64,000 bases of DNA from an uncultured Candidatus Saccharibacteria bacterium (GCA_964365955.1 CAYISA010000003.1:677-64676); one strand, 5' to 3'; counted from the stretch's first letter, positions 10,764-64,000 are shown. Made by a program: numbers and translations. The notes: a model not told the origin generated them from the sequence alone.

Positions 10764-11720
10764 ATGCAGAAGAGTATTCTGATCATATTTATTTTATTCG
10801 CTATTCTTGTCAGCGGTTATTATTTTTTTGCGAACACACCAAACCCCGGTGCCGGACCAGAACGTTTTATCGTGCCGCGCGATAGGGGAGCGGATGTCTC
10901 TGCTCTTTTAAAAGAACAAGGATTTGTGCGAAGCGCTTGGATTACAAAATTATTCTTAAGTGTCAAAAGTGGGGATACGACGCCGGGCGGCTATAAACTA
11001 TCCAAAGGGATGAACGCGTGGGAAATTGCGGGTGTTTTAACGCAAGCGCCGTATATGCGCTGGGTTACGATACCCGAAGGGCTTAGAAAAGAAGAGACCG
11101 CGGAGGTTTTGGGTGCGTCTCTTATGTGGCAAGAAGCACAATCCAATGATTTTTTGAATGCATATAAAACCATCGGAGCCCAGTATAGAGAGGGTTATTA
11201 TTTTCCGGAAACGTATTTGATACCGACCGACGAAGACGGCGCCGTGGTCGCAAAACGAATGATTGATAAATTCAACGAAAACTTTTCTCCGTATTACGCC
11301 ATGTTCCTCAAAGAAAATATAAAAGAGGGGACAGCGATAAAAATCGCATCGCTCATCGAGCGCGAGGCCGCAGGACACAATGATATGCCGCTTGTTGCGG
11401 GAATCATTTGGAATCGGCTCTTGCAAAACATGAAGCTGGATATTGATGCGACTCTCCAGTACGCGCAAGGGAAAGTAGGGGACTTGTGGTGGGCGCCGAT
11501 TCACGGTCCGGATGCGCGGAAATTAGAGTCGCCTTATAACACGTATCTGCACAAAGGACTTCCGCCTACCGCAATCTCAAATCCAGGATCAGCCGCGATT
11601 GAGGCGGCGCTTCATCCCGCAAAAACAGATTGTCTGTACTATCTCCACGACAAAACCGGACAGATCCACTGCACCAAAACCTACCCCGAACACCAGAGAA
11701 ATATTCAACTCTACCTCTAG
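10764..11720 (+). CDS. mltG: Endolytic murein transglycosylase MltG (YceG family)
   Basis: N-terminal TM segment. YceG hallmarks include EGYYFPETY. 318 aa, TAG stop. Confidence 0.9.
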   Translation: MQKSILIIFILFAILVSGYYFFANTPNPGAGPERFIVPRDRGADVSALLKEQGFVRSAWITKLFLSVKSGDTTPGGYKLSKGMNAWEIAGVLTQAPYMRWVTIPEGLRKEETAEVLGASLMWQEAQSNDFLNAYKTIGAQYREGYYFPETYLIPTDEDGAVVAKRMIDKFNENFSPYYAMFLKENIKEGTAIKIASLIEREAAGHNDMPLVAGIIWNRLLQNMKLDIDATLQYAQGKVGDLWWAPIHGPDARKLESPYNTYLHKGLPPTAISNPGSAAIEAALHPAKTDCLYYLHDKTGQIHCTKTYPEHQRNIQLYL

Positions 11721-13982: not shown

Positions 13983-15293
13983 TTAAAGATAAAGTGTGGG
14001 ATCGATATGCCCGCCGATGGGCATTAAACCACATTGGCGCGATGGTTGCGAACCTTCCGGAACCCCTGCGCGCGCGGGCGAAAGCGTTTGATTCGCGAAT
14101 ACGGTGAAATGAAGATGGGGACCTGTGGCATATCCCGTGCGGCCCAAAAATCCGATAATCTGTCCCCTCTCAACCCGGTCGCCGGCATTCACGATGTAGC
14201 GGGAAAGATGACCATAGAGCGTAGCGAGTCCATTTTCATGTTTGATCTCCACAAATTTCCCGTAAGCGCCTTTCCGGCAGAATTTATCCTGATCTCCGGA
14301 ATTGATCACAACACCTGACTCCGCCGCAAGAATCGGCGACCCCACGGGGACACCTCCTAGATCCACTCCGTTATGAAAACGTCCACGGTAATTCCGAAGC
14401 GCAAATGCCGTAGAGCCGTAGCCTTGAGTCAGCCGGGCACCCAAGACCGGCCACAGAAAAAGGCCCTTCCGCGCAATCGGTAACAGATTAGGATCGATGC
14501 TTTTCCGCAATACGGATTCGATTTTTTCAACCTCCGCGGAAATCTCATCTTGTACTTTTTCAAGCGCTGAAAGCTGTTGTTGATAGACGCGTTCGCGATT
14601 TTTTGTCTGTTCCAATAGCCGTTGACGCTCTTCTTTTTGGTCTTTGACGATGTATTGCTGGCCAACCAGCGTAATGCGTTCTTGTTCTTTGCTTGTTTTT
14701 TTCGTCCGCGCCTCGTCCAATTTATTATTCATCTCTTCCTGTAGTGAACGCAGGCGTCCCATATTCTCCGTAAGGGATGAGCTAAGCGATGAAATGGAGC
14801 GGATTTCGGAAACGGCTTCGCTCAACCGAGCGTTCCGTAAAATAGATGTAAGCGGATTTTCGTGATCCTTTTCCTGCAGTTCAATAAATAATTTTGCCAC
14901 TGTCGCCTGCTGGTTCACGATGCTGCCATGAAGCCCCGTAATCTGATCGCCGAGCGATCCTATTTCATCTGAAAGTTTTTCAATATTCAGGCGACTTGCC
15001 TTGATGGAAAGATTTAATTGACCGATGTTCGAATCCAATACATTGATCTCGCGATTCAAGGAATTTTTGGATTGGAGCACGGTGTCTAAATTTTTCTGCA
15101 CCACGTTTTTCTGATCCTGAATTTTTTGCAATTCCTCGGCTTTTTTCTGAAGCGAGTCGCGCAATGTCGTCGTGGCCCCTCCGCCAGAGGGCGGCACGGA
15201 AATCTGCGCGTACGTCAAAAATACGCCCGTGGCTGAAAGGATAATAGATAGCGCAATTAAAATACGAAGACTGTATAGAGGAATAGATTCCAT
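13983..15293 (-). CDS. M23 family peptidoglycan endopeptidase with a coiled-coil N-domain (EnvC-like)
   Basis: TM/signal segment, a long coiled coil, then a LytM domain (HNGVDLGG, YGHLS, GPHLHF). The ATG (MESIPLYSL) lies 12 nt after the gltX stop. Confidence 0.8.
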   Translation of the reverse strand: MESIPLYSLRILIALSIILSATGVFLTYAQISVPPSGGGATTTLRDSLQKKAEELQKIQDQKNVVQKNLDTVLQSKNSLNREINVLDSNIGQLNLSIKASRLNIEKLSDEIGSLGDQITGLHGSIVNQQATVAKLFIELQEKDHENPLTSILRNARLSEAVSEIRSISSLSSSLTENMGRLRSLQEEMNNKLDEARTKKTSKEQERITLVGQQYIVKDQKEERQRLLEQTKNRERVYQQQLSALEKVQDEISAEVEKIESVLRKSIDPNLLPIARKGLFLWPVLGARLTQGYGSTAFALRNYRGRFHNGVDLGGVPVGSPILAAESGVVINSGDQDKFCRKGAYGKFVEIKHENGLATLYGHLSRYIVNAGDRVERGQIIGFLGRTGYATGPHLHFTVFANQTLSPARAGVPEGSQPSRQCGLMPIGGHIDPTLYL

Positions 15294-15304: not shown

Positions 15305-16714
15305 TTATACCGTTAGTTTCAGAAGCGCCTGATCGATACGGCGGAGAGATTCGTCCTTGCCTAAAATATCCAATAACTCGACCGGTCCGGGCGACGCTTC
15401 CGATCCGGAGAGAGCTACGCGCAAGGGCCACAAAACGTCTCCCCTCCCCTTGGCCTCCGCAAATGGCATGAGAACCGCCGTTAATTTTTCTTTTGAAAAA
15501 TCGTGTTCGGGAACATCCTGAAGAATATCGCGCGCGCCGCGCATCATCTCTGCCGTTTTTGCCGGCTCGCTCCCCTTCCAGGCAAGAAGCGCTCCTGTAT
15601 AACTCGGTAATTCAAAAAACATTTTTGCAAGTGAAACAAAATCCGACAGAGTGCGCATCCGTTCCCGCTCCACTTTCAAAACTTTTTTCACGAATGCCTT
15701 TTTGTAGAGCCATTCCGGCGGTAAAAAGGGCGCAAGATGGTGGATGAGGTTTTCGATGGGAAGATGTTTTATGTAATACCCATTCAGCCAGTTAAGTTTT
15801 TCCTCATTAAAAACGCCGCCTGATTTTTGAACCCGCTTGATTTCAAATTCTTTGACCATTTCCGCAATCGAAATGACTTCACGATCGACGAGAGGGTGCC
15901 AACCAAGCAAGACCAGAAAATTCAGGATGGACTCCGGCAAATATCCCCCATTTCGATAGGTGTCGATGGAGGTCGAAACGAACCGCTTTGAAAGTTTTTT
16001 CTTATCTAGGCCCAAAATAAGCGGCAGATGGGCGTAATGCGGAATTTTGAATCCCAGCGCCTCCTGGAGTGCTATCTGTTTGGGGGTATTGGACAAATGA
16101 TCTTCACCGCGAATCACATGGCTGATCTCCATCTCTTCGTCATCCACGACCACCGCAAAGTTATAAAGCGGTTCCGTAAGACTTTTCGCAATGATAAAAT
16201 CACCCGAAAGCGCCACGTTAAATTCGGTCTTCCCGCGCACTAGATCGGTAAAAGCGATTTTCTTGTCCGGAACGCGAAAACGGATGACCGCCGGCATGGT
16301 CGCGTGTTTCTCTTCTGCCGCTTCCGACGAAAGCGCCCGGCATCGGCCACTATACTTCGGCGACAATCCTTGGCTTAACTGCGCCTGCTGTTCAGCTTCT
16401 AGTTCCTCTTCTGTGCAAAAACAATAATATGCTTTTCGTTCATCGATGAGTTTTTGAAGGAATTTTCTGTAGACGGCTATCCGGTCACTTTGACGGACTT
16501 CTTTTTCGTCCCAATCAAGTCCTAACCACTCCAAACTCTTAAAAATCCCCTCTTCGTACTCCTTTTTGGAACGTGTCGTGTCGGTGTCTTCAATGCGCAA
16601 TAAAAACTTCCCTCCTTCATGGCGGGCGAAAAGCCAATTAAATAATGCGGTCCGCACAGTCCCCAAATGCAGAGAACCCGTGGGAGAGGGCGCAAACCTT
16701 ACTCTCACTACCAT
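15305..16714 (-). CDS. gltX: Glutamyl-tRNA synthetase
   Basis: HIGH-region PSPTGSLHLG and KMSKS-like KLSKR. 469 aa. Confidence 0.95.
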   Translation of the reverse strand: MVVRVRFAPSPTGSLHLGTVRTALFNWLFARHEGGKFLLRIEDTDTTRSKKEYEEGIFKSLEWLGLDWDEKEVRQSDRIAVYRKFLQKLIDERKAYYCFCTEEELEAEQQAQLSQGLSPKYSGRCRALSSEAAEEKHATMPAVIRFRVPDKKIAFTDLVRGKTEFNVALSGDFIIAKSLTEPLYNFAVVVDDEEMEISHVIRGEDHLSNTPKQIALQEALGFKIPHYAHLPLILGLDKKKLSKRFVSTSIDTYRNGGYLPESILNFLVLLGWHPLVDREVISIAEMVKEFEIKRVQKSGGVFNEEKLNWLNGYYIKHLPIENLIHHLAPFLPPEWLYKKAFVKKVLKVERERMRTLSDFVSLAKMFFELPSYTGALLAWKGSEPAKTAEMMRGARDILQDVPEHDFSKEKLTAVLMPFAEAKGRGDVLWPLRVALSGSEASPGPVELLDILGKDESLRRIDQALLKLTV

Positions 16715-16747: not shown

Positions 16748-17872
16748 CTACCTCCAACCGAGTAAAAGCACTTCTTTTGCAATGATTTCCGCAGCTTCTG
16801 GCGTGAAAAAATGTTTTGCCGCGTCGATCATTTTTTGCCGCCGTTCGGGCTTTTCGAGAATTTCCTTCAACTTGGCTGTGAAAAGATGGATTCCGAGATT
16901 ATTTTCTTCGAAAACAGCCGCCGCGCCTGCAAGCGAATAGGCGTAGGCATTCGCTCTCTGGTGGTCGTTTGCGGAACCCGTAAGCGGGATTAGAATCGCC
17001 GGTTTTCTGAAGGACGCGATCTCGTAAATAGCTCCGGATCCCGCACGCGATAGGATAACGTCCGCCGCGGAAAATGCTTTGACGGTCTCCGAAAGCTCCA
17101 GATACGGAATCATTTTGTAGCGCACCCAGAGCGCAGCATCGATCGTTGCAAGCGCGGGAGTTAAAAAATCCTGTACAACCCTTGCGTTCGTGGCACCCAC
17201 CTGATGATAAACCTGTGTTACACTCAAAATCTCCTTAAGATGTTCGGCAATAAACGTATTGATTTTCATTGAACCCTGCGAACCTCCGACTACCACCAAA
17301 AGAGGAAGTTCAGAATTGAATCCCAGGTTTTTTTTCGCGGTCATTTGTTCTGGGCGATCCTCCAAAAGTGCGGCACGGATGGGATTTCCGGTAAAGGCAA
17401 TTTTTCTTTTTGGGAAAGATTCCGCGGCGGAAGAAAATGCAAGCGCAATTTTAGCGGCAAGATAGCCCGATAAACGATTGGTAAGCCCCGGGACGGCATC
17501 CGACTCATGAATGACGACCGGGATGCGATAGAACCAGGCCGCCAGGACAACCGTGAAGGCCCCGGGTCCGCCTTTCGAAAAAACAACATCCGGCATCTCG
17601 ATATAGAGCCAAAAGAGCGACTGAAAAATACTGACAAAGAATTTCGGGATGTCAAACATATTCCGAATATCGGCGTAGCGCCGTATCTTACTGGATAAGA
17701 TAGAGCGGATGCGGATTGCCCGATCGGTAAACTCTTTATTCAACGGGGAATGCGGGCCGATATATGAAAAATCAACCGGAGCCTTCGCTAATGTTTTGAT
17801 TGTGTCCGCAACCGCAAGAAGCGGATAGATATGCCCGCCCGTTCCCCCGCCGGTGAGTGTAATGCGCATCAT
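16748..17872 (-). CDS. murG: UDP-GlcNAc:undecaprenyl-PP-MurNAc-pentapeptide GlcNAc transferase MurG
   Basis: MMRITLTGGGTGGHIYPLLAV glycine-rich loop and GT-B fold. The ATG is 1 nt after the ftsW stop. Confidence 0.9.
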   Translation of the reverse strand: MMRITLTGGGTGGHIYPLLAVADTIKTLAKAPVDFSYIGPHSPLNKEFTDRAIRIRSILSSKIRRYADIRNMFDIPKFFVSIFQSLFWLYIEMPDVVFSKGGPGAFTVVLAAWFYRIPVVIHESDAVPGLTNRLSGYLAAKIALAFSSAAESFPKRKIAFTGNPIRAALLEDRPEQMTAKKNLGFNSELPLLVVVGGSQGSMKINTFIAEHLKEILSVTQVYHQVGATNARVVQDFLTPALATIDAALWVRYKMIPYLELSETVKAFSAADVILSRAGSGAIYEIASFRKPAILIPLTGSANDHQRANAYAYSLAGAAAVFEENNLGIHLFTAKLKEILEKPERRQKMIDAAKHFFTPEAAEIIAKEVLLLGWR

Positions 17873-17873
17873 G

Positions 17874-18986
17874 TTATGTTCTCGTTCGATATTTTGAAAT
17901 ATTAACGACAATGCCCGCCATCGTCAAAAAAATCGTGAGTGCCGTGCCTCCATAACTCACAAATGGAAGAGGAACTCCGGTGATCGGAATAATTTTTGTC
18001 ATGGCTGCGATATTGATAAATGTCTGGATTCCGACAAGGGAAACGAAGCCCGTCACAAACAACCGCCCGAACACGTCGGGAGCGTGGCTTGCGATGCGCA
18101 GTCCGGTGAGTAAAAGAAATAGAAACAACAAAACCAGCGCCACCGTCCCTGTAAAACCAAGCTCCTCCCCGATTACCGCAAAAATAGAATCCCCAATCGG
18201 CTCCGGAAGGGTCTTGAGTTTTGTGGTCGATTTCCCGAACCCCACACCGGTCGCTCCGCCCGATCCGATCGCCATCAGAATCTGGTTTATTTGATAGGAT
18301 TTTCCGAGTGTATCGGTTTCCGGATGCAAAAATGACGTGAAGCGCTCTGACCGGTATGGCGTCACATAAATCAACGCTGCGACAACGCCCACGCCCACCA
18401 GAATTGCGACCGCGATATACCACCACTTCGCGCCGGCAATGAAATAAACAGCAAACGCCGCACCCAAAATAATGACGGCGATGGACGTAGCGGGTTGTAT
18501 AAACAAAAGTCCCGCTGTGAGTCCCAAAATAAGCAAAAAGGGAATAAGACCGTTTTTGAGACTTTTCACTCGAGCGGCGTTCTTTCCAAGCCATGCCGCC
18601 AAAAAAAGAAAGAATGTCAGTTTTAGAACTTCTCCCGGCTGGAATGTGATGGGTCCCACGCTCAACCACCGCTCACTGCCTTTTGTACCGAATCCCAGGG
18701 GGGAAAAGACGAGGATCAGAAGGAGAAGGCTTGCGGCAAAAAGCCACGGCGCCCATTTTTCCCATCGGCGATAGTACACCATCATGCCGATAAAAAATCC
18801 CAAAAGTCCCGTACCGAATCCAAAAAGAAGCTGGTGCTTCAAAAAATAAAGACTGTCGCCAAAGCGGGCTTTCGCCATATCGGAAGATGCGCTCGTGAGC
18901 ATCACAAAACCAAAGACGATCAAAAGTGCCAAGAGCACGATGAATACCAAATCGGGTGAGGATGCACGGGGGGTTCGTGTTGCCAT
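17874..18986 (-). CDS. ftsW: SEDS-family peptidoglycan glycosyltransferase FtsW/RodA
   Basis: About 10 TM segments and conserved SEDS motifs. It sits between murG and mraY. Probable start at MATRTP. Confidence 0.85.
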   Translation of the reverse strand: MATRTPRASSPDLVFIVLLALLIVFGFVMLTSASSDMAKARFGDSLYFLKHQLLFGFGTGLLGFFIGMMVYYRRWEKWAPWLFAASLLLLILVFSPLGFGTKGSERWLSVGPITFQPGEVLKLTFFLFLAAWLGKNAARVKSLKNGLIPFLLILGLTAGLLFIQPATSIAVIILGAAFAVYFIAGAKWWYIAVAILVGVGVVAALIYVTPYRSERFTSFLHPETDTLGKSYQINQILMAIGSGGATGVGFGKSTTKLKTLPEPIGDSIFAVIGEELGFTGTVALVLLFLFLLLTGLRIASHAPDVFGRLFVTGFVSLVGIQTFINIAAMTKIIPITGVPLPFVSYGGTALTIFLTMAGIVVNISKYRTRT

Positions 18987-18994
18987 ATGCGGGT

Positions 18995-20500
18995 TCACGC
19001 AGTGCGTTTTAGAACTGCTCCGGACAATAAGCGTTGGGGAATGGAGTCCTTTAAAGCCCAACCGCCGTTCACAAACACATGCAGGGGCTTAAAATCGGAA
19101 GCGAGTACAGCGAGATCGGCATAATATCCTTCTTTCACCAACCCGCGCTGTTTGATACGATATTTCTCCGCTGGCAGTGACGTTGCTTTCTGCACCGCAG
19201 TTTCGAGGGGCATTAATTTCTTTTTCTCCGAGCGCTCAAAAAAGGTCGGAAATGCCCAATCATTGCGTCGGTGTTTATACCCCCCCTCCCTTAAACTAGC
19301 TCCGTTCGAAGCGATGATCGCTTGGCGATGCGCCATTGCACGATCGAGCGCACTCCCATCGATGTCGCTATAAAACAATGTCCCCAAAAGACGCGTCATG
19401 CGCATCAAGCGAAGCAATGCCTCCGGCATGCCGCAGTTCTGATTTTTCGCGAATTCTTCGATTGTTTTCCCTTCCAAAAAGCGGAACGATGCATCCTGCA
19501 TGTGACCGATAATAATTTCCTTGCGCGCATATCGTTTAAAATATTCCAACAATCTTTCCTCACTCGCGCCCGAAAGAATTTGCTCGCGCATAACCGGCAT
19601 CCCACCTTCTTGTAACCACTTCGGCAAAAACATATACATGGAAAGCGCGAGTGTTTCGAATGGATAGACATCAAAGTGGATGCGACTATCGGAAGATGTG
19701 CGTTCGATCGCCTCAAAGACCGTCTCATAGAGCGGGGCAAAACTTTGGCGCGGCTCCAAATGGCTGATCTCTGTATTGACTCCGGTTGTTTTCGCCACTG
19801 TAATCGCCTCTTCGGCCGCTTCCAAAATCCCCACTTCCGAATCCCGTAGATGTGTCGCATATACGCGGTCATAGCGAGCCGCGACCGCCGCCAATTTTTT
19901 TATTTCATACAGCGGTGTCCCGCGAGAATGCGCGTAACTTAATCCTGTTGAAAATCCGAACGCTCCTTCCTGAAAGGCGCTTTCTAGCAACCGCGCGAAC
20001 ATCGCAAGTTCACCCTCGGTCAAGTCGCGGAGCGTATCCCCGAGCATGCCGCGCCGTATTGTTGCGTGTCCTACCAGTGTTCCGAAGTTCACCCCGAGTT
20101 TATTTTTTCGAAGGATGGAAAGGAACTCCCCTACCGTGCGCCAGTTAATATTGATATGAGATGGGTCTCCCCATTTCATGATGGATTCCAGGGAATTTTT
20201 TAAAAGCGGGGCAAGTGACGAACCGCAATTCCCGCCGATAATGGTTGTAACGCCCTGTTTTAAAAAATCGCTCTGGAGAGGGTCTGTAAAAAGCGAAAGA
20301 TAATGGTCGGAGTCCGTGTTGATATCCACAAAACCGGGCATCACAAACACGCCTGTTGCATCCACCGTGGTGTCCGCACGCTGTTTTGAAAGATCGCCTA
20401 CCCGGATAATCTTGTCGTTTTGGACAAGAACGCTTGCGGGTCGCGCTGCAGCTCCGCTTCCGTCAAAAAGTGTCCCATTTTTTATGAGAATCGTTGCCAT
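18995..20500 (-). CDS. Amidohydrolase, N-acyl-D-amino-acid deacylase (D-aminoacylase) family, with a degenerate metal-binding motif
   Basis: Amidohydro_3-like N-terminus (ILIKNGTLFDGSG...VMPGFVDINTDSDHY). The usual DxHxH motif reads NTD. It occupies the slot between mraY and ftsW. Confidence 0.65.
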   Translation of the reverse strand: MATILIKNGTLFDGSGAAARPASVLVQNDKIIRVGDLSKQRADTTVDATGVFVMPGFVDINTDSDHYLSLFTDPLQSDFLKQGVTTIIGGNCGSSLAPLLKNSLESIMKWGDPSHININWRTVGEFLSILRKNKLGVNFGTLVGHATIRRGMLGDTLRDLTEGELAMFARLLESAFQEGAFGFSTGLSYAHSRGTPLYEIKKLAAVAARYDRVYATHLRDSEVGILEAAEEAITVAKTTGVNTEISHLEPRQSFAPLYETVFEAIERTSSDSRIHFDVYPFETLALSMYMFLPKWLQEGGMPVMREQILSGASEERLLEYFKRYARKEIIIGHMQDASFRFLEGKTIEEFAKNQNCGMPEALLRLMRMTRLLGTLFYSDIDGSALDRAMAHRQAIIASNGASLREGGYKHRRNDWAFPTFFERSEKKKLMPLETAVQKATSLPAEKYRIKQRGLVKEGYYADLAVLASDFKPLHVFVNGGWALKDSIPQRLLSGAVLKRTA

Positions 20501-20521
20501 CTCTCTTTTATTATACTCCAC

Positions 20522-21568
20522 CTAAAGAAAACGATAGAGGAAAAAAACCACTAACCCCACCGTGCTCATGACCGCCGAGATAATCCAAAACCGCATCGTA
20601 ATCTGACTTTCGGGCCAACCTAAACCCTCAAAATGATGATGAATGGGCGTCGAAAGAAAAATTTTTTTCTTCCTGATTTTTTTGCTTATGACCTGTACGA
20701 TCACTGAAAGGGATTCTATCATGGGGATAAACGCGAAAAACGGGAGTAGGAGCGCGGTGTTCGTGAGCATCGCCATCACTCCGAGTGTAATTCCAAGCGA
20801 CATCGAGCCCGTGTCTCCCATAAAAAAACGCGCAGGATAAATATTGAACCATAAGAATGCCAGAAGCGCACCCAAAATGACGCCGTTCAGCGCGGCCAAA
20901 TCATACCGATGCAGAACAAATGACACCACCGCAAGCGCGGCAAAAGCGAAAAAAAGTGTGCCTCCGGCAAGACCGTCCAGCCCATCCGCTTCATTCGCGG
21001 AAAATGCCGTAGCGGCGAGGATGAAGATAAAAATGGGGATATACCACCACCCTACTTCTACGCCACCGACAAACGGGATGTAGAATGTTGTCCACGAAAG
21101 CCGGAAATAGAACCACCATGCACCGATTGTTGCGACTAAAAAATAGAGTCCCAACTTTTGAACGATACTCAATCCTCCACCCTTCGGCCCCTTTCCCAAA
21201 ATGCCGAACATGTCGTCCGCGAGCCCCACGATAGCGGAAAAGAAAAGCGCGGCGAGCGGCAAATATGTTTCGGCGCGGTTCACAAAATCAAAATAGGACG
21301 CGAACCCATCGAACAATTTTGCGAATATAAAAAAGATCAGCGCGAGCCCTACGATCGTTCCCCAGACGATGATGCCTCCCATGGTAGGGGTGTTCGCTTT
21401 TCCTTTGTGGAATTGGTTGAAAACAGGAGCGGTGATTTCATCGCGGATATTTTTTTTGCGCAGATTGAATCGCAAAAGAAAATGCGTGATAAATGGCGTA
21501 ATAAAAAGCGCGGCAACAAAGGCGAGAGCGAATAGGATCAAAATGCGAATCGCTTCAAATACTTCCAT
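20522..21568 (-). CDS. mraY: Phospho-N-acetylmuramoyl-pentapeptide transferase MraY
   Basis: Polytopic membrane protein with characteristic MraY loops. 348 aa. Confidence 0.95.
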   Translation of the reverse strand: MEVFEAIRILILFALAFVAALFITPFITHFLLRFNLRKKNIRDEITAPVFNQFHKGKANTPTMGGIIVWGTIVGLALIFFIFAKLFDGFASYFDFVNRAETYLPLAALFFSAIVGLADDMFGILGKGPKGGGLSIVQKLGLYFLVATIGAWWFYFRLSWTTFYIPFVGGVEVGWWYIPIFIFILAATAFSANEADGLDGLAGGTLFFAFAALAVVSFVLHRYDLAALNGVILGALLAFLWFNIYPARFFMGDTGSMSLGITLGVMAMLTNTALLLPFFAFIPMIESLSVIVQVISKKIRKKKIFLSTPIHHHFEGLGWPESQITMRFWIISAVMSTVGLVVFFLYRFL

Positions 21569-21572
21569 AGTA

Positions 21573-22532
21573 TCACCACTGATAAGCTTCCTCGACCCAT
21601 TTTAAAATTTCGCGTGCGGTGCGCATGCGGTCACGACTTCCTAAAATAATCATCGCGATGCGCTGGTTATGGAACGAAAAGAGCGCTACGAGATTTTCCC
21701 GCGCGGCAGGCGATGTTCCGGTTTTCCCCCCTAAGAAATTTTTCTCCGTCACAAGCGGATCGATATTCTCGATCGTTTTGATTGTGGTTGAATTGAGCGG
21801 TTGTACGACCACCACTGGAAGTCGGGTCCAGCTGAAAATGTCGGGATGGCGTTCCACAATATATCGAACCAGTTTAAGAAGATCATTTGCAGTCCCCACG
21901 TTCGTGTCGGAAAGTCCCGAAGCATCTTTCAACACCACGCGGTTCATCGCGATGGCTTTCGCTTTTTCCGCAAGCTGCGACACAAACTTTTCCTTTCCAC
22001 CGCCGTATTCTTCAAAGGCGACTGCGGCATCGTTCGAAGAAACCATGAGAAGGATTTTTAAAAGATCTTCGGCACTATAAACCTCTCCGCTTTTCAATTC
22101 TCCCGAAAATCCTTCCGTCTCGACCGCTGTTTCGCTGATCGGAATTTTTTTGTTGCTCCCCATATCTTCCAGAACCGTGACGGCTGTCAACAATTTTGTG
22201 AGCGATGCCATGGGCCATTCGGTATAGGTATTCAGCCGGAAAAACGGAAAATCGGTGTCGAGCGACTGTACTAAAAGTGCTTCCGCATCCACCCGAGGAT
22301 CCAGAACATCCCATTTGCGACGCGGAAATTGAGGATCCGCCGCTACGGAAGCGCCTACGGATGCGCGCAGATCGAAGGTTGTGTTTTGAACGGTTCGGGG
22401 CTGGCCGCTATCCGAAACGGAGACATTATCCGCCGCACTGAAGGCGGGCGCAGAAATCTGCGTCCGTGTAATCGCAACGGAAATAAGAATGATAAGCACC
22501 AAAAGCAGTGCTTGTATGCGCGTGGTCATCAT
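21573..22532 (-). CDS. D-alanyl-D-alanine carboxypeptidase (S11 / PBP5-like)
   Basis: Signal peptide. SxxK (SLTKLLTA), SxN (SSND) and KTG (KTGTS) motifs. Confidence 0.8.
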   Translation of the reverse strand: MMTTRIQALLLVLIILISVAITRTQISAPAFSAADNVSVSDSGQPRTVQNTTFDLRASVGASVAADPQFPRRKWDVLDPRVDAEALLVQSLDTDFPFFRLNTYTEWPMASLTKLLTAVTVLEDMGSNKKIPISETAVETEGFSGELKSGEVYSAEDLLKILLMVSSNDAAVAFEEYGGGKEKFVSQLAEKAKAIAMNRVVLKDASGLSDTNVGTANDLLKLVRYIVERHPDIFSWTRLPVVVVQPLNSTTIKTIENIDPLVTEKNFLGGKTGTSPAARENLVALFSFHNQRIAMIILGSRDRMRTAREILKWVEEAYQW

Positions 22533-23143
22533 GCAGCTGGAGAAATTGGATCCGCCATCGAAACATTCTCGATGGATTGCGACTCAACCGACTGTGCTTC
22601 AAAGCGTTTGAGAATGGTGTGGAAATGATCGAATTCCGGCAAATCGCCTGTTTTTTCAATCCCCATATGCTTTAGAAAAGCGAAGCTGGGCCGATAGGAA
22701 TACATATTCCCCTCCTGATCGCGATCAATAAGTCCTCGCATCACAAGATTCCGCAATGTGAAACTGGAATTCACCCCACGGATATAATCCACCGTAGAAC
22801 GCGGCAAAGGACCCAAGTACGCAACCAGCGCCAGCGTCTCGAGAGTTGCGGGGGTGAGATTTTCACGAATTTCCTCTTTCAATACTTTTTCGCCGATGTC
22901 TTTGAGCTCGGATTTTGTCACTAGCTGGACCATGTCGTCTGAATGTAGCAAGGCGACACCGCGGGAACCGCTATTTTTTAGTGCCGCCTCCCACTCGAGA
23001 AGCGCCGCTTCACACTCATCTTTTTTGATCCCCAGCACGTTCGCCATTTTTTTTATCGGAATCGGCTCTCCGTAATAAAAAAGAAGCGCCTCCATTTTTG
23101 CGTGCAGATCCAGCCCCGGTGTCATATTTTTTTCTTCGTCCAT
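22529..23143 (-). CDS. scpB: Segregation and condensation protein B
   Basis: ScpB winged-helix repeats. 4-nt overlap with the downstream gene. Confidence 0.85.
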   Translation of the reverse strand: MDEEKNMTPGLDLHAKMEALLFYYGEPIPIKKMANVLGIKKDECEAALLEWEAALKNSGSRGVALLHSDDMVQLVTKSELKDIGEKVLKEEIRENLTPATLETLALVAYLGPLPRSTVDYIRGVNSSFTLRNLVMRGLIDRDQEGNMYSYRPSFAFLKHMGIEKTGDLPEFDHFHTILKRFEAQSVESQSIENVSMADPISPAA

Positions 23144-23161: not shown

Positions 23162-23878
23162 TTACGTAACGGGAGACTTTTTCGCAATCGTGATAGCGCC
23201 GAACTGCGCGTCCTGTACCGCGTGCACAAACTGGTCCTTGATCAAATGGAGAACAGCAAGGAAGAGCACTACGATCTCCTCGCGCCCCTTTCCTTTCTGA
23301 AGCGCATTGAATTGTGTGGGTAGTTCCGTAAGCCGCGCGAGCACTTCCTCGATTTTCTGCTTCAAGTGCAAAATTTCCCGACGCACGGTTGCCGTGGGGC
23401 GGAATACTTTTTCCAGCTCCCCTACCATGCGTGCGAGCGTATCGCGTAAAAATTCCGGCCCCATATTCGCCGGAGGATAAAAAATAGGTTCCGTTGTCAT
23501 TAAAAATTCCCGCGAAAACATCTGTGATGTTTCATCCCATGTGGAACGAATCATCTGATGCGTCGCTTTGAGTTCGTGATATAACTTGAGCCGTATCTCC
23601 AAACTTTTAATATCGGTTTCTTCTTCTGCGGTCAGTTGGAGCGACGGCAGGAGTGCTTTGGATTTGATAAGAATGAGCCGCGATGCCACCACCAAAAAAT
23701 CCGCCATGGATTGCTGTGCAAACGCCTCACCTTCAAGCGTTTTGATGTAGTTCAAAAAATCCGCAGTCACGTCCGCCAAACTTAACTGCGTAATTTCAAG
23801 CTTCTTTTCCTCAATTAATTCAAGGAGTTTTTCGAGCGGACCCTTAAACTGTTCGTTTTTGACCTCGTAGGGAGCCAT
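23162..23878 (-). CDS. scpA: Segregation and condensation protein A
   Basis: ScpA (kleisin) family. 238 aa. Sits upstream of scpB. Confidence 0.85.
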   Translation of the reverse strand: MAPYEVKNEQFKGPLEKLLELIEEKKLEITQLSLADVTADFLNYIKTLEGEAFAQQSMADFLVVASRLILIKSKALLPSLQLTAEEETDIKSLEIRLKLYHELKATHQMIRSTWDETSQMFSREFLMTTEPIFYPPANMGPEFLRDTLARMVGELEKVFRPTATVRREILHLKQKIEEVLARLTELPTQFNALQKGKGREEIVVLFLAVLHLIKDQFVHAVQDAQFGAITIAKKSPVT

Positions 23879-23950: not shown

Positions 23951-24305
23951 GGGGTCCTTGATGCGGCGATAAATATGCCTATTGGCACGGGGTTTGGTTA
24001 CTGGCTGAAGAATTTCAGCAAGAATGCAAACCGAAATCGAGATGCGCCGTGATCAAGGAAAAAGGTGGGGTGGTTGGGGTCACGGGAGCGATATTATTCC
24101 ATCCGGTTAAGATTGGCGGAAATGTACACGCCGGTGTACTTATCGATTGCTCCTGCTTAGCACTATGCTTTGCGCCATGGGGTCACATCGGTACCGGTAT
24201 CCGACTATGGACGCCAACCACCCACATTCAATGCACTAGTGTTCAGTATACTTCCCTCTCATTCATTTGTCAAATCACCGTCATTGACGGACTGGTCCGC
24301 CTACC
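23951..24305 (-). ncRNA. Candidate structured non-coding RNA (family not identified)
   Basis: No credible ORF. GC-rich, with a long-range 12-bp pairing (gtgggtggttgg / ccaaccaccccac) and internal hairpins (gtacac-cggc-gtgtac). It ends at the terminator above. Confidence 0.3.
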
Positions 24306-25362: not shown

Positions 25363-25989
25363 GTGAAATTCTCTGAATGGTTCGAAAAGCTGTTTGAGAC
25401 GAAAGATGATTGCTTGGCGACAAAAGCGGATGTAATTATCGCTATCGGAACGGATGTTTCTGCTGATGGATGGTTGCCCAGCCCCCAATCACAGGCAATC
25501 GCGATAAAAACGGCAACGCTCTATCAAAACAGGCGTGCGGACACTATTATTTTTTGTGGTGGCTACGCCACACGCGGATTAACAGAAGCAGAACGAATGT
25601 GGAACTGTGTAAAAAACAGGGTTCCGTTTCCGTCGGGACGTTACACCACGGATGGACAATGTTTTTTAGAAACGAAAAGTACTCGTACCTATATGAACGC
25701 GGACAATACGCTCGCGATCATGAAAGAAAACGGCTGGAAATCCGCAATTATTGTAGCCCAGCAGTGGCACGCACGTCGTGTTCGAGCAACGTTCTGGCGA
25801 CGCTGGAACAAACGACATAAGTTTTTCTGGCGTAAAAAATGCACCGGACCGTATCAAATAGCTGTTGTGAAAGCACGCTCGGAATATACCGGCAATAATT
25901 CTCAAAGCCGTTTGGGAACGTTCTGGAAATTTTTCCTCACGTGGGATACTCCTGCTTTTATCCTGTCGTGGTTGAAAGGATGGTGCTAG
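25363..25989 (+). CDS. DUF218 / YdcF-SanA-ElyC family protein
   Basis: GTG start. IIFCGGYATRG...AIIVAQQWHARR motifs of the DUF218 family. Confidence 0.55.
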   Translation: MKFSEWFEKLFETKDDCLATKADVIIAIGTDVSADGWLPSPQSQAIAIKTATLYQNRRADTIIFCGGYATRGLTEAERMWNCVKNRVPFPSGRYTTDGQCFLETKSTRTYMNADNTLAIMKENGWKSAIIVAQQWHARRVRATFWRRWNKRHKFFWRKKCTGPYQIAVVKARSEYTGNNSQSRLGTFWKFFLTWDTPAFILSWLKGWC

Positions 25990-28658: not shown

Positions 28659-29228
28659 TTAATCATCTACCACGCGAAACTGTGTGGCTCGTATCCCGGT
28701 CGGATCTGCGCGCACGAATTCGAATAACTTCAGCATGTCGGGAATTGAAATCCCTACGCATCCTTTTGAGATCGCCTGGCCGATGGTTTCACTGCATGTT
28801 ACGGAGTGGATACTAAATCGCTCTTCTCCTTCTGTTTTCAGATGGCGCCGTTCCACTATTTTACGGGGCAGAAAAATGAAATCATAATGCAACATCAGTG
28901 CGCGCATTTTCTTATAATTCACGCGAACCTTGCCACCGGCACACTCTGCCGAATCCACCAGTTGGCCCTGCTTCGGTCCAGGATCCACAAACCGAAAGAT
29001 GGGGCGGTTCCTCTTTTCGCCGATGTACCCACATCCGAGCGGCGTAGGAAAGTTTCTTTTCCCCACGCGGACAGGAGCGGCAAAAACAATGGAATCGTTT
29101 CTTACAAACTCCAAAAAACGGCTTTTCCGATGAATAACAATCGTTCCGTATCCACCCGCCTTTGCGACTTCACACAGCGCAACAAAAACCAGAACGCAAA
29201 TAACATACATCCGCACTCTTCGCCACAT
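28659..29228 (-). CDS. L,D-transpeptidase family protein (YkuD-like)
   Basis: Signal peptide. YGTIVIHRK...SKGCVGI resembles the YkuD catalytic His/Cys region. Confidence 0.5.
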   Translation of the reverse strand: MWRRVRMYVICVLVFVALCEVAKAGGYGTIVIHRKSRFLEFVRNDSIVFAAPVRVGKRNFPTPLGCGYIGEKRNRPIFRFVDPGPKQGQLVDSAECAGGKVRVNYKKMRALMLHYDFIFLPRKIVERRHLKTEGEERFSIHSVTCSETIGQAISKGCVGISIPDMLKLFEFVRADPTGIRATQFRVVDD

Positions 29229-38223: not shown

Positions 38224-39813
38224 TTAATGAGTAACGGCCGTAAACGTGTTGGTTCCTGTATAGTTTCCTGAAGGATTTGTCCCAACGGAAAGACCCCAAA
38301 AAACATCCCTTGTGCTCGGAGTCACGGAGGTAGGTTTTGTGACATTTAAAATATACTGCGTGGGCGTTGTGGAAAGAGCGGTGCAGACCGTACAGCTTGA
38401 ATACGTAAAAGTGCTGGTGGCGTATTTTTGATTGCCGACAGCGATTGTGTTGGAGCCGGATATAAGGTCCGTACCGGAAAGGTTGACATCAATAGCGCCG
38501 TTCCCTGTGTTCGTAACCGTGGTGGTTTGGTTCGCGGCTCCAGTAGTTCCGCCGGGAGAAATAGAGCCATAACTGATGGACGCTGTTACATTCAGTGCAA
38601 GGAGCGTGTTCAGTTCCACACCGGACGCGGACGTGGCGGAACCAGACGCGCCCGCCTGATCCACTCCTGTGATTGATGCCTGCCATGTTTCTGCCGCGTA
38701 GGTTCCCGCGTCTGTCGGTTCCGCAAAAAATTGAACCGGCACGGAACAGGTGGCGGTGCAACTATTCCCTACACAAGAACCAAGAGGGCAACTGGACGAT
38801 GCTAATCGATAACAATTATTTTGATCAGCGGCGCATGCCGCACCAACACCCGACCGGTACAAAGTTCCGGTGGCATACGCAATATCCGCAAATCCATCTG
38901 TGTCGGTGACGGTTCCTGCAAAACTTATACTTGTGCTTGTATTTTCCGTAAGCGTGATCGCCGCGCTTCCGTTCACGGTAACCGCAGAGACCACCGGAGT
39001 TGCATTCGCGGCGCTTGCAAGCGTCACCGTGGGATATCGCGTATAAACAAAATTGGTTGCGGACCCTGTGTTCGTAACGCGAAAGCAATATGTGCCGCTC
39101 GATGTTGCGGCGGTAAGCGCTTGGACGGCATATTCAAGTTCCACAAACTTATCGCTCGCAAGCGTAAGCGCGCCAGTCTGACTTGTGGTTTCGCGTTGAC
39201 CTCCGTTTGGAGAAAGGAACTGCGCATTCGCGTCCGTTACGCCACCCGATACCCACGCGATATTCGTCGTGTCACCTCCTTCTGTAAGTTGTGACGCACC
39301 CATATCCCAATCGCCACCCACTATCCCGACGTCGGTATAGGTCGCCGCCGCACATGTGGATTCCAAAAAACCGTACTCGATCTGAAATTGCTGTGTTGAA
39401 AATCCTTCCCGCGTGCCTCCAGCATTGGTTATCTCCACGCGCAATCGTGTCACGATATTTTTTGAAAGATTGGAAAGGGTCGTATCCTCTATTTCTCCTG
39501 TTGCAGAGGTAGCCTGCGATTCGACATTATCGTCGTTGCGCCAATGAAAATGAATCTGCGTATATTGAGGTTTTATGTCCCTTAACAAACTGAACAAATG
39601 CCCCGAAAAAACTTTAAAGGCGCTTGAGGTTGAGATGCCAAACCCCGACTGTCCCCCGCCACTCCGATTTTGAAATGTCGTTGAGGTGCTTAATCCCGTA
39701 ATGGTTTGAACGTCCTGACGCACGAAAAAAGATGTGGATGTTGCATCCCATGCAAGCACCGTAAGAGGAAACGCGATTCCTAAAATTCCCGCTATAAGAA
39801 TTTTCTTACTCAC
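38224..39813 (-). CDS. Ser/Thr/Gly-rich secreted protein (paralog B)
   Basis: Signal peptide and S/T/G-rich body with Cys pairs. C-terminus ...NYTGTNTFTAVTH is paralogous to 37210-38151. Confidence 0.5.
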   Translation of the reverse strand: MSKKILIAGILGIAFPLTVLAWDATSTSFFVRQDVQTITGLSTSTTFQNRSGGGQSGFGISTSSAFKVFSGHLFSLLRDIKPQYTQIHFHWRNDDNVESQATSATGEIEDTTLSNLSKNIVTRLRVEITNAGGTREGFSTQQFQIEYGFLESTCAAATYTDVGIVGGDWDMGASQLTEGGDTTNIAWVSGGVTDANAQFLSPNGGQRETTSQTGALTLASDKFVELEYAVQALTAATSSGTYCFRVTNTGSATNFVYTRYPTVTLASAANATPVVSAVTVNGSAAITLTENTSTSISFAGTVTDTDGFADIAYATGTLYRSGVGAACAADQNNCYRLASSSCPLGSCVGNSCTATCSVPVQFFAEPTDAGTYAAETWQASITGVDQAGASGSATSASGVELNTLLALNVTASISYGSISPGGTTGAANQTTTVTNTGNGAIDVNLSGTDLISGSNTIAVGNQKYATSTFTYSSCTVCTALSTTPTQYILNVTKPTSVTPSTRDVFWGLSVGTNPSGNYTGTNTFTAVTH

Positions 39814-39814
39814 G

Positions 39815-40213
39815 TTACTTTAAATACAGCATTACCGGAGAGGCCGGGGAAATCGGTTGCCAATACAACACTTGCGCTCGGTTCAAAAATATCTCCAAAC
39901 TGCGAAATACGGGAATATAACGCACTTCGGGTTCAATTCCTCCATTTAAACCGAATGCGGAAGAAGAAGCGGAGGCCTCCGGACTGGGTCGTGTGAATTT
40001 TTCCGGCACATATACATTCGTAAGTTTTATAGTATCTCGCGTAACACCGGAAAGGACGCCATAAAATAACTCTCCGTTTGTAAGATTCGCCGCAATCCAC
40101 ACATCGGGTAAGGGAGTGTGGAGTTGCCAATACAACACGCCACGCTCAAAACCAAACCATGTGCCTGCGGTGAGAAAAATAAAAACAATGATCCAGAAAA
40201 CAATGCGCATCAT
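39815..40213 (-). CDS. Membrane-anchored hypothetical protein
   Basis: N-terminal TM segment. 132 aa. Confidence 0.4.
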   Translation of the reverse strand: MMRIVFWIIVFIFLTAGTWFGFERGVLYWQLHTPLPDVWIAANLTNGELFYGVLSGVTRDTIKLTNVYVPEKFTRPSPEASASSSAFGLNGGIEPEVRYIPVFRSLEIFLNRAQVLYWQPISPASPVMLYLK

Positions 40214-40680
40214 TTGGGATTATACCACACCCCTTTTATCCCCTGGTCCGCAGAAATTACGTAATACGTTCCTTCGGCAAGATTTTTTAGATCCGAAAGC
40301 GCGAACTCATAGAAAAATATTTTGTTCTGTGGACATGGGATTGCGCGATTTACCAAAGCCCGTGAAGGGTCCTGCCGATAATCAATGCGCGAAGAAAAAA
40401 TTAACAGCGCGACATACGCGTCGCTGCACCGCCCTTTAAACGTGAGTGTGTTTTCTTTTGAAACAAAACCGTCCTTAAAAACAAACGTGCGAAATGTTGA
40501 CGGATCCGGATAGGTGCGGAATATGTCTTCAAGAGCAACCTGCGGTGAGCCCGCCATGGGCGATTTTGAGGATGGAGAACTGTTCCCCTTCCACCAAAAT
40601 CCCGCGATACTTAACAAAAAAATAAGGAGCGCGAGCCCAAGAATGCGATAGCTCCGCTCGCGCTCCGTCCGTACTTTCAT
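40210..40680 (-). CDS. Membrane-anchored hypothetical protein
   Basis: N-terminal TM segment. 156 aa. 4-nt overlap with the downstream gene. Confidence 0.4.
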   Translation of the reverse strand: MKVRTERERSYRILGLALLIFLLSIAGFWWKGNSSPSSKSPMAGSPQVALEDIFRTYPDPSTFRTFVFKDGFVSKENTLTFKGRCSDAYVALLIFSSRIDYRQDPSRALVNRAIPCPQNKIFFYEFALSDLKNLAEGTYYVISADQGIKGVWYNPK

Positions 40681-40681
40681 A

Positions 40682-41194
40682 CTAATTCTTGACCACGCGA
40701 AGCTCGACCAGCATATCGGAGATCACATTCCAGTAATGCTGTTGCGCAAACTGCCGCGCCTCTTCGGATTTTTTATCCCACGGAGGATTAAAGAACACTA
40801 CCATGTTTATTACGTCGAAATTGCATTTGATCGGATAGTGATCCAGTTTGTTTGCCTTGAGCCAATTTTGGTTGTAATACATCCATGTCGCCTCCGAAAG
40901 CGCGCGCGTATGCGTGGGATCCTGCCACGCTCGGATGGACGCGTAATAAGGACCGACAATTGTGACTTTCGCTCCATCGCAACAAACACGATACACCTCA
41001 TTCATAAACTTCATCAGATCTTTAGTGTGCTCCGCGTAGTGACTCACATGGACTTCCGTTACGGAATCATTTTTGATTGGTTCCCACGGAAATTGCTCCA
41101 AATCCCAGACAAAATCAACATCGGGTCCTGGCGCAATATCGATTCCTTTAAATCCCTTCTGTTTGTTCTGCCCGCAGGCAATATCTAGCTTCAT
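40682..41194 (-). CDS. Class I SAM-dependent methyltransferase
   Basis: Motif I LDIACGQNKQKGFKGIDI and an acidic post-I motif (DVDFVWDLE). Confidence 0.6.
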   Translation of the reverse strand: MKLDIACGQNKQKGFKGIDIAPGPDVDFVWDLEQFPWEPIKNDSVTEVHVSHYAEHTKDLMKFMNEVYRVCCDGAKVTIVGPYYASIRAWQDPTHTRALSEATWMYYNQNWLKANKLDHYPIKCNFDVINMVVFFNPPWDKKSEEARQFAQQHYWNVISDMLVELRVVKN

Positions 41195-41203
41195 AATAGT
41201 TAA

Positions 41204-42004
41204 TTAGTAAATAATTTCAGTTTGAAAATCCAGATGGCCACACCGAATATTAGTATCTACACAAATCTTGTATCCTAATTTCTTAATTTTCTCGTAGAAA
41301 TACAGGTCTTGAGTATAAACACGCGCTACACCATCTTTTATTTCGTTTACGGTTCGAAAAAAAGGTTTTTCTATACGCGGATCTTCGAAAATTGCGCGCT
41401 TCATTAAGGTCATGCCCATGCCGCAGCCATTCACCTCTACAATATCGCCCGGTTGCCAATTCATATTAACTTCAAAAGGATTGGGCACGTTAAAATTACC
41501 GGTCCCGTAAGTTAATGGTAGAGATGGTTCTCCTTTCAACCAGTACAAACCGGAAGCCACATCAAATTTCCCCATATGCTTGTAAAGCTCGATAAGTGGC
41601 CCAAAACTGTTATCCATAAATGGCACTATGATATCGTCTTCAAGGAAGAGAATGTGTCGAAAATTCTTCAGCTCTGGTTGACCCAGAATCTGCCCCACGG
41701 CCTTCTCGTAGGCATCCCCGACCTCATAACCAGAAACGATCATTTCCATCGTCGGAATATTCATCGGTTTGATGAAACGTTTCCATGATTCTACCACCCA
41801 TGGGTGGAATCCAACGTAATGTTCTACCTCAAAAGAGTGGTCACAATGTGGACACTTGGCGCGGGTACTGCTTTTTCCACGAGTAGCAATTACGATGATG
41901 GTGGAAAAATTCTTATACGTATCGCCTTTTAATATCTTACTTTCCCACTGCTTGGCACGGGCATTGCCCAAAAGCTCATCTATGTCTAACTTTTGAGGTT
42001 CCAT
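41204..42004 (-). CDS. Putative GT-A-fold glycosyltransferase (DxD motif)
   Basis: ILFLEDDIIVP matches a DxD motif in a Rossmann-like context. CPHCDH near the N-terminus. The assignment is tentative. Confidence 0.35.
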   Translation of the reverse strand: MEPQKLDIDELLGNARAKQWESKILKGDTYKNFSTIIVIATRGKSSTRAKCPHCDHSFEVEHYVGFHPWVVESWKRFIKPMNIPTMEMIVSGYEVGDAYEKAVGQILGQPELKNFRHILFLEDDIIVPFMDNSFGPLIELYKHMGKFDVASGLYWLKGEPSLPLTYGTGNFNVPNPFEVNMNWQPGDIVEVNGCGMGMTLMKRAIFEDPRIEKPFFRTVNEIKDGVARVYTQDLYFYEKIKKLGYKICVDTNIRCGHLDFQTEIIY

Positions 42005-42005
42005 G

Positions 42006-42944
42006 TTAATTATTTATGACATAATCATAGACCATCCTGGATATTGTTTTCATAAACTCATTTGCCTTTTCTTCGTTTCCACCATTAAAACCGGCACATA
42101 AAATATAATTGCGGTTTGGGGCGTAAACAATTCCGCAATCCGAGAATGTCTCGTCATTTTTGGAAACCCCTATTTTATGGGCGACCAAAATGGAGTTTGG
42201 AACGCCATCCCTTATCTTCTCGTTGAAAGGAGTGTTTGTTAAGTAATCGAGAATTTGCTGAGAATTCGCGGCATTTATGTATTTGACATTATATAAAGCT
42301 AAAAACATATTGGAGAGGGTTTTGAGGTTGATCTTCGTGAAATTTGGATTTTCTCCGAAATCAAACGTCCAACCGAAACTTTCGTAAACCGGCTGGAGCG
42401 GATTTTTTATTCCTAATTGTTCGAGAGAATTCAATAAAGCGTTTTTTGCGGTATTGTCCGAGTGCTCCAACATTATTTTTGCCAATTCGCGAACGGTTAG
42501 TGATTCGCCCGGACCAACCATGTAAAGATCTCCAAAATTTTTGTCTAAATCCGATGCATCTAAAGTATAGACATCCTCAAAATTTATTTTCCCCTCCTCG
42601 ACCGCCTTAAAAAGGGAGATTGCGAGTGGCACTTTGGTCGTACTAGCTGCCGTAAATTCGTCCCGTTCATTCAATCCTATCCAAGACCCGCTATTGAGGT
42701 ACAAAAAATAAACGTAGGTTTTTTGAGGGTACATTTTCTGAACTTTTTCCAACTCCACCCTAAGCGGTTTGAAATTTATGATAAAGTGCTTGTTGAGATC
42801 GCTTAAAATAGTCGGATTGATAAGAGGAAATTGAGATTTATTTTCTACTATCGCTACTGTTCTTGAATCAGATTTTATCGAAAATCCTAAAACAAATCCC
42901 ACTACAAAAATCACCGTTAAAGCGAATATTTTTTTGGTGTTCAT
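42006..42944 (-). CDS. Serine hydrolase, class A beta-lactamase/PBP-like
   Basis: N-terminal TM/signal. SxxK (ASTTKVPLA), SDN (EHSDNTAKN) and KxG (HKIGVS) motifs. Confidence 0.6.
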   Translation of the reverse strand: MNTKKIFALTVIFVVGFVLGFSIKSDSRTVAIVENKSQFPLINPTILSDLNKHFIINFKPLRVELEKVQKMYPQKTYVYFLYLNSGSWIGLNERDEFTAASTTKVPLAISLFKAVEEGKINFEDVYTLDASDLDKNFGDLYMVGPGESLTVRELAKIMLEHSDNTAKNALLNSLEQLGIKNPLQPVYESFGWTFDFGENPNFTKINLKTLSNMFLALYNVKYINAANSQQILDYLTNTPFNEKIRDGVPNSILVAHKIGVSKNDETFSDCGIVYAPNRNYILCAGFNGGNEEKANEFMKTISRMVYDYVINN

Positions 42945-42947
42945 GAC

Positions 42948-44420: not shown

Positions 44421-44424
44421 AAAA

Positions 44425-46565: not shown

Positions 46566-46623
46566 ACTCCATCATTCTACACAAAAAACAGAATTTGTGC
46601 ACAAAACAACGGAGGAAAATTGC

Positions 46624-47091: not shown

Positions 47092-47181
47092 ACTTATTAT
47101 CTTACCGAACCGCACCATAAAACACAAAAGCGATCCTAACAGAAAGGTTTTCAATCGGGAATGGTAGAATAAATAATAAGG

Positions 47182-48675: not shown

Positions 48676-48680
48676 TTCTC

Positions 48681-63734: not shown

Positions 63735-64000
63735 AAAATTAGATGCCGCAACCGCCCTGTGGGGCGTAAGGTGTCTGTTCGTTTTGTTGCGGGATTTTAA
63801 TTGCCCCCGCATTCCTATCAGCTTTTAGGCCCGCGATATAAATCCACGTGATTGAAATAACGAATGCGGAGATAAGAATGCTCACCGAAATAGAATGATC
63901 TTTATTTTGTTTTTTTCTGTATTTTCCATGTTGGTGTTTCCCCCGTTTGAAACTAAAAAACCGCGAACGATGCGGCGGGAGCTACAAGCAGAAAAGTACG

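Follow-up and report, generated by a model that had tools for sequence, protein, structure and literature searches.

Structural and mutational studies have given a detailed picture of the active site of D-acylases that belong to subtype V of the amidohydrolase superfamily. The catalytic zinc sits in the beta site on Cys96, His220 and His250, and the HxH motif does not hold the catalytic metal yet is required for activity (PMC12149444, PMC12017989). The general base is proposed to be Asp366 on strand 8, a residue shared by all of the D-acylases studied (PMC12149444). In PpOngB, a GlcNAc1A deacetylase, activity is abolished by H68A and likewise by H70A, and the mutant used for the substrate complex, D368A, is inactive (PMC12017989). 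Inactive aspartate mutants of both proteins are found in the PDB (D366A of D-aminoacylase, 1rjq; D368A of PpOngB, 9kb3). Here we describe a protein of this fold in a different setting. The gene, which we call X, is an amidohydrolase-like gene on the minus strand at positions 18995-20500 of a 64,000-nucleotide stretch of uncultured bacterial DNA (GCA_964365955.1, CAYISA010000003.1:677-64676; the window, by which we mean this whole stretch), where it lies between mraY and ftsW. X has a fixed place in the division/cell-wall block of a large uncultivated lineage, where it had so far gone unnoticed. We think it about evenly balanced whether X is a conserved pseudoenzyme that works with FtsW/MraY as a non-catalytic helper of peptidoglycan synthesis, and this is the reading that we develop below.

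Enzymes of the wider superfamily have been turned into non-catalytic subunits before. Pseudomonas aspartate transcarbamoylase requires PyrC', an inactive dihydroorotase, and the CRMP/DPYSL proteins are catalytically dead partner proteins with the amidohydrolase fold. X resembles both in that the fold is kept while catalytic or metal residues are lost, in being under purifying selection, and in the tie of the gene to a partner. It differs in that these proteins belong to another branch of the superfamily, the CRMPs matching the model of X at a template modelling (TM) score of only ~0.57, in that the partner of X is putative, and in that the zinc site is still present in most X proteins.

Fold and Active Site of X

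The public gene call for X gives a protein of 501 aa that starts at an ATG at 20500 with a Shine-Dalgarno-like stretch (AAGAGAG) ahead of it, the same span that a first-pass annotation of the window had assigned to the gene. The longest open reading frame (ORF), 18995..20521, encodes 508 aa from a GTG at 20521, and our residue numbers follow it. The closest solved relatives of X are D-aminoacylases (1m7j at E 3e-48, phmmer against the PDB), and a profile of the X family reaches solved D-aminoacylases, 9g5m among them, at E values of about 1e-76 to 2e-76. An AlphaFold model built with 47 relatives has a mean predicted local distance difference test score (pLDDT) of 93.8. In Foldseek comparisons it matches 9kb1 (PpOngB), 1m7j (D-aminoacylase), 9gv8 (Klebsiella D-acylase) and 3gip (N-acyl-D-glutamate deacylase) at TM scores of 0.80-0.87 and 24-27% identity, with the remaining amidohydrolase superfamily far behind (TM ~0.55). 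The predicted architecture is that of a D-aminoacylase, with a (beta/alpha)8 barrel, a beta-sandwich formed by the N- and C-terminal parts and an inserted alpha/beta domain. Pfam and NCBIfam place X in amidohydrolase-superfamily families only (for NCBIfam, among the 25 best of 54 matches). No signal peptide or transmembrane segment is apparent in X, whose model is compact and globular, and no added domains were found in N- or C-terminal extensions of the family. X is best explained as a descendant of a beta-mononuclear (subtype V) D-aminoacylase. According to the first-pass annotation, the slot between mraY and ftsW holds a D-aminoacylase-family protein some 500 aa long, and both the matches and the gene order bear this out.

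The best structural match is PpOngB (9KB1/9KB3, TM 0.82/0.87). PpOngB shows that the fold has been turned to non-amino-acid substrates before, and its mutational data apply directly to the positions that are replaced in X. Unlike X, PpOngB keeps His68, His70 and Asp368, and it is active in chitin catabolism.

The first-pass annotation described a degenerate metal site, which it took to suggest altered or lost catalysis. Its first element is correct in that the HxH motif is replaced: the strand-1 motif of X, DINTDSDH (20303-20326, minus strand, as are all codons given here), aligns to DSHTHDDN of 1m7j and reads N-T-D, the first histidine (His67) having become Asn68 and the second (His69) Asp70. 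The equation of this motif with the catalytic metal site does not hold, since the catalytic zinc of this subfamily sits on Cys/His/His, a site that is intact in X. The equivalents of Cys96, His220 and His250 are kept as Cys99 (GGNCG, 20225-20227), His224 (YATHLR, 19850-19852) and His254 (EISHLE, 19760-19762). A further replacement lies on strand 8, where Asn406 (IASNGA, 19304-19306) takes the place of the general base Asp366 (GSDG). The case for loss of canonical catalysis is therefore stronger than the HxH motif alone would make it; the equivalents of His67, His69 and Asp366 are all replaced, and all three positions are individually essential in characterised relatives. To judge from sequence, a change in or loss of canonical catalysis is very probable.

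X retains Tyr286 and Arg419 of the carboxylate-binding c-site and Tyr196 of the acyl-binding n-site, which correspond to Tyr283, Arg377 and Tyr192 of D-aminoacylase. X and the D-aminoacylases thus share the three-part fold, at TM scores of 0.80-0.86 and 25-27% identity, the zinc ligands in the arrangement GNCG...H...H, the c-site Tyr/Arg and the n-site Tyr. They differ in that X has NxD for HxH, Asn for the general-base Asp and a nearly invariant new histidine, His73. They also differ in genomic setting, the D-aminoacylases being encoded in catabolic loci and X in the division/cell-wall block of Paceibacteria, and in that some members of the X family have no metal site.

Conservation of the X Family

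A protein search recovered 1527 relatives of X, the best 120 of which are full length and 42-93% identical to it; residue statistics refer to these 120 and the window protein, 121 sequences in all. The organism names attached to the 120, where given, are Patescibacteria, Paceibacterota or plain 'bacterium', and the public labels are 'amidohydrolase family protein' or 'N-acyl-D-amino-acid deacylase'. A scan of GTDB with one genome per species showed a relative in at least 546 species; locus and identity counts cover the best 80 of these, which span Harrison-, Lipton-, Brenner-, Jorgensen-, Wolfe- and Colwellbacteria and take in three complete chromosomes of ~0.83-0.90 Mb (OY970175.1, OY970354.1, OY970382.1). 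No relatives were found in viral contigs. ORFs are intact and full length throughout: X is a large family of the Paceibacteria, an extensive group of very small (ultra-small) groundwater bacteria, and not a decayed gene. The sequences indicate strong purifying selection, with a constraint comparable to that on essential cell-wall proteins, because the median identity to the window protein across the 80 species is 43% for X as against 44% for MurG, 50% for FtsW and 63% for MraY. Catalytic residues are thus lost in a fold that is retained under purifying selection, as in amidohydrolase-fold pseudoenzymes of the PyrC' and CRMP type.

Conservation is uneven across the old active site. The commonest signature, D66 N68 D70 D72 H73 C99 Y196 H224 R226 H254 Y286 N406, is found in 73 of the 121 sequences. 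Asp72 is invariant and His73 nearly so (120/121), the zinc ligands are retained in ~93% of the family, and Tyr196, Tyr286 and Arg419 are present in 102, 94 and 91 sequences, respectively. Position 68 is Asn in 100 sequences and His in none, and position 406 is Asn in 101 and Asp in two. Position 70 is Asp in 89 (74%) and otherwise His, Ser, Asn, Val, Ala or other residues. Such variation at positions 68, 70 and 406 is a pattern unlike that of essential catalytic residues.

One subclade has gone further. The Cys and both His zinc ligands are lost jointly in eight of the 120 homologues and in two of the 80 GTDB loci (L026 and L077), with Thr, Ser, Ala or Gly in place of the Cys, Gln or Asn in place of the first His, and Asn, Tyr, Arg or Gln in place of the second. 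All eight homologues also lack the c-site Arg, and seven of them the c-site Tyr. The operon position has nonetheless been kept. One metal-less homologue (P0075) lies in a complete scpA-scpB-S11-mraY-X-ftsW-murG-gltX-M23 block on the 585-kb contig Ga0315285_10000001, and X-ftsW is retained in both GTDB loci. Retention of the position without the active site argues that X is kept for something besides that site, and that ligand binding at the old site cannot be its sole conserved role.

Linkage of X to ftsW

In the window X is the fifth gene of a nine-gene block on the minus strand. The block is headed by scpA (23162-23878) and scpB (22529-23143), followed by a gene for an S11 D-Ala-D-Ala carboxypeptidase (21573-22532) and mraY (20522-21568; TIGR00445, 191.8 bits). 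Downstream of X are ftsW of the SEDS family (17874-18986), murG (16748-17872), gltX for glutamyl-tRNA synthetase (15305-16714) and a gene for a coiled-coil M23 peptidase (13983-15293); the last two are conserved members of the block, and the direct step from murG to gltX reported in the first-pass annotation is seen here. The genes are closely packed, with 21 nucleotides (nt) between mraY and X, 8 nt between X and ftsW and 1 nt between ftsW and murG. The same nine-gene order recurs in metagenome contigs whose X homologues are 45-54% identical.

The organization of these loci shows that the bond of X is to ftsW. In all 79 loci that can be judged, ftsW lies directly downstream of X, and the 80th GTDB locus stops at a contig edge. 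The aligned ftsW segment begins a median of 18 nt after the stop codon of X, and the spacing is 0-30 nt in most loci, with frequent overlap. The link to mraY is the weaker one, because mraY is upstream of X in only 45 of the 64 loci with room for it and is the immediate neighbour in 28. The genes for mraY, S11 and scpAB are gone from the neighbourhood of X in 19 of the 64, and insertions separate mraY from X in 17 more. The first-pass annotation had allowed that the amidohydrolase might be a random neighbour, a possibility that clearly fails in view of this conservation in relatives.

A signal that suggested an X-FtsW fusion was not genuine; the two genes share a frame in four loci but are split there by one stop codon. 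After murG, gltX is seen in 60 and the M23 peptidase gene in 47 of the 80 loci, many of which are shortened by contig ends. Genes of the FemAB family are frequent neighbours, coming after the M23 gene (L001, 16603-17583) or ahead of murE (L090, 8777-9706).

Proposed Role of X

We propose that X, having lost the residues for amide hydrolysis, would be kept as a cytoplasmic protein that works with the membrane steps of peptidoglycan synthesis without catalysing a reaction itself. Its conserved function would be independent of the old active site, and X may serve as a structural or regulatory subunit, by analogy with PyrC' and aspartate transcarbamoylase. FtsW is the most likely partner, and MraY and MurG are possible ones; the Mur enzymes are known to assemble on MurG (PMC6420597). 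Most members, that of the window included, may have kept the ability to bind zinc, together with a ligand that ends in an N-acyl-D-amino acid. The candidates for this ligand are UDP-MurNAc-peptide or lipid I/II, through their ...-D-Glu or ...-D-Ala-D-Ala end, because the zinc site and a pocket for a free carboxylate beside an acylated, D-configured amine are preserved in most members.

Several points weigh against such a role. The loss of activity is read across from homologues. Retention of the zinc site and of Tyr196, Tyr286 and Arg419 in most members fits a working enzyme too, and Asp70, at the place of the former His69, could in principle act as a general base. The partnership with FtsW/MraY is suggested by a conserved operon position, which is indirect evidence of shared function, and a sister lineage, discussed below, apparently copes with no X between mraY and ftsW.

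Should X be a non-catalytic partner of FtsW/MraY, it would add a new cytoplasmic component to the lipid II or divisome machinery, and would be a new example of an enzyme fold reused for a structural or regulatory subunit. The division/cell-wall cluster is among the most conserved gene arrangements in bacteria, and in a major uncultivated lineage at least 546 species have X as a fixed part of it. Literature searches on murD in Patescibacteria/Parcubacteria, on the division/cell-wall cluster in the candidate phyla radiation (CPR), and on amidohydrolases with mraY/ftsW returned nothing relevant to X. The public deacylase labels are probably misleading, and metabolic reconstructions that follow them could credit these bacteria with a D-amino-acid deacylase activity that they probably lack.

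Alternative Explanations

The main rival, which we regard as possible and hold only tentatively, is that X is an active zinc amidohydrolase with a remodelled site, in which zinc is held by the Cys/His/His ligands, Asp70 or His73 serves as the general base, and the substrate is a cell-wall-linked D-amino-acid amide. One option is that X would release D-Glu from scavenged L-Ala-D-Glu or N-acyl-D-Glu and so feed MurD. The characterised relative 3gip cleaves N-acyl-D-Glu, and Bb3285 also cleaves L-Xaa-D-Glu dipeptides. The other option is that X would trim the terminal D-Ala off UDP-MurNAc-pentapeptide to provide a tetrapeptide for an L,D-transpeptidase encoded nearby, of which the window has one, of the YkuD type, at 28659-29228 on the minus strand. 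Retention of the zinc ligands in ~93% of the family and of the c-site and n-site residues in most members speaks for such an enzyme, as does the acidic residue at position 70 in 74% of members, alongside the loss of the Asp366 equivalent. A further point in favour is E. coli NagA, an active beta-mononuclear amidohydrolase without HxH. NagA, however, retains the strand-8 Asp, unlike X, in which position 406 is almost never acidic. Asp70 is present in only 74% and the position is otherwise variable, each of the replaced residues is individually essential in PpOngB, and the subclade without metal and carboxylate sites has stayed in the same operon position.

An unlikely alternative is that the function of X is unrelated to the cell wall and that ftsW is its neighbour merely through inherited gene order. 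Small genomes can conserve gene order without a functional link, and scpAB and gltX, which are not cell-wall genes, are also fixed in the block. Simple inheritance does not readily explain why X-ftsW outlasts both the removal of mraY, S11 and scpAB and the insertions between mraY and X, or why the spacing stays within 0-30 nt in most loci when no other neighbour is kept as strictly.

Absence of MurD from the Slot

The slot occupied by X is the usual position of murD, and the first-pass annotation, which saw no murD in the window, took the substitution to be functionally suggestive. The absence itself is confirmed. No Mur ligase or Ddl was detected across the 64 kb, where E. coli MurC, MurD, MurE, MurF and DdlB gave only noise in tblastn at E<=1 and nothing in phmmer. 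Mur-ligase Pfam families were found neither among the 17 window ORFs scanned, which included every ORF of at least 400 aa, nor in an additional 10 kb from the source contig, which is 84,448 bp long (Hainich groundwater, ENA ERZ1292626, Hain_H43_01um_R3_154_length_84448). Around X, no MurD was found in 85 loci (tblastn/phmmer, E. coli queries), and no Mur ligase adjoins X in any of them.

Mur ligases of other types do occur at some distance. In ~14 of the 85 loci murC lies downstream of the M23 gene, and one of these loci, L037, also has murE. Its proteins exceed the curated cut-offs (MurE at 342 against 257 bits, MurC at 359 against 335 bits), and with the L037 MurE as query we collected 80 further Paceibacteria loci from metagenomes. 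None of these murE loci contains MurD, and in the 2.33 Mb of Paceibacteria DNA around cell-wall genes MurD and MurF were not found, only MurC and MurE being seen. The Paceibacteria MurE is itself unusual. At only ~423-431 aa (L037:15351-16622; L090:9983-11278; L122:9983-11251) it aligns to residues 94-491 of E. coli MurE, and the N-terminal UDP-binding domain seems to be missing; it nonetheless exceeds the TIGR01085 cut-off. It carries EDPY where diaminopimelate-type MurE, as in E. coli, has DNPR.

The further loci revealed a sister Paceibacteria lineage in which S11, mraY and ftsW are contiguous (L090, L107, L119, L130, L148, L152, L156 and L163). Gaps of ~2 kb or more separate mraY and ftsW in L105, L133, L149, L160 and L124. 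In another locus of the sister lineage the slot holds a 634-aa MsbA/PglK-like ATP-binding cassette (ABC) exporter (L122:1693-3597), which could be a flippase for a lipid-linked precursor.

These comparisons bear on whether X replaces MurD. The slot lacks murD whether X fills it or not, so that its occupancy is no evidence for functional replacement, and since MurF is equally absent from the sampled DNA, not finding MurD close to these genes tells little about what the remaining genome encodes. Canonical MurC and MurE in relatives imply an ordinary D-Glu-adding step. X and MurD are alike only in the mraY-ftsW position and in a presumed affinity for a ligand of the N-acyl-D-Glu type. The folds are unrelated, and X has no ATP-binding P-loop and no Mur-ligase domains, which makes substitution unlikely. 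The suggestion that X stands in for MurD is also weakened by the sister lineage, with its contiguous mraY-ftsW or an exporter in the slot, by the variable active-site positions, and by the subclade that lost the whole site and kept its synteny. We expect murD to be encoded elsewhere in X-bearing genomes. KEGG K01925 was not found in the supplements of groundwater and sludge CPR papers.

We consider it very improbable that murD is truly absent and that X takes part in a MurD-independent attachment of D-Glu onto UDP-MurNAc-L-Ala, whether as a reversed deacylase or by a MurL-like epimerisation of terminal L-Glu. Its position, the fact that the product of MurD is an N-acyl-D-glutamate and so of the ligand class of the X fold, the lack of MurD in the 2.33 Mb and the fixation of gltX in the block all lend it some appeal. 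A bypass without a Mur ligase, ATP-independent or linked to Glu-tRNA, is nevertheless a far-fetched route, since an ATP-free condensation runs thermodynamically uphill, ATP-binding and ligase domains are lacking in X and its catalytic residues are missing or variable, one subclade has no active site at all, MurF is equally absent from the sampled DNA, and X is not in the slot of the sister lineage, which has the same MurE and likewise no murD there. MurL, for its part, is an ATP-dependent enzyme (PMC8788868), whereas the matches of X name amidohydrolase-superfamily families only. No family named MurL was matched in Pfam or among the 25 best of 54 NCBIfam matches, with the presence of a MurL model in these libraries unchecked. 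MurL is paired with a MurD2 ligase, and beside X no Mur ligase is found in the 85 loci.

Other Features of the Window

The best sigma-70-like site upstream of scpA, TTGACA-17-TATACT at 24245..24273 on the minus strand, is a consensus match only and a possible candidate promoter for the block from scpA to the M23 gene. Other cell-wall-related genes around the block, named by Pfam labels from identical public contigs, are a YceG/MltG-like gene (10764-11720, plus strand), a DUF218 gene (25363-25989, plus strand) and the YkuD L,D-transpeptidase gene mentioned above.

Farther away, four large ORFs of 529, 490, 504 and 478 aa on the minus strand at 38224-50117 have zero Pfam matches. They adjoin type IV pilus genes, among them T2SSF (52498-53625) and T2SSE (53597-54832). 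Toward the end of the window (57300-59687 and 62242-63812, both minus strand), a DsbD-like membrane protein and a peroxiredoxin are encoded close to an HMBD-domain P-type ATPase for copper/heavy metals, and several small CsoR-like metal repressors (PF02583) are found in neighbouring contig sequence. Together these genes look like a metal and redox stress island.

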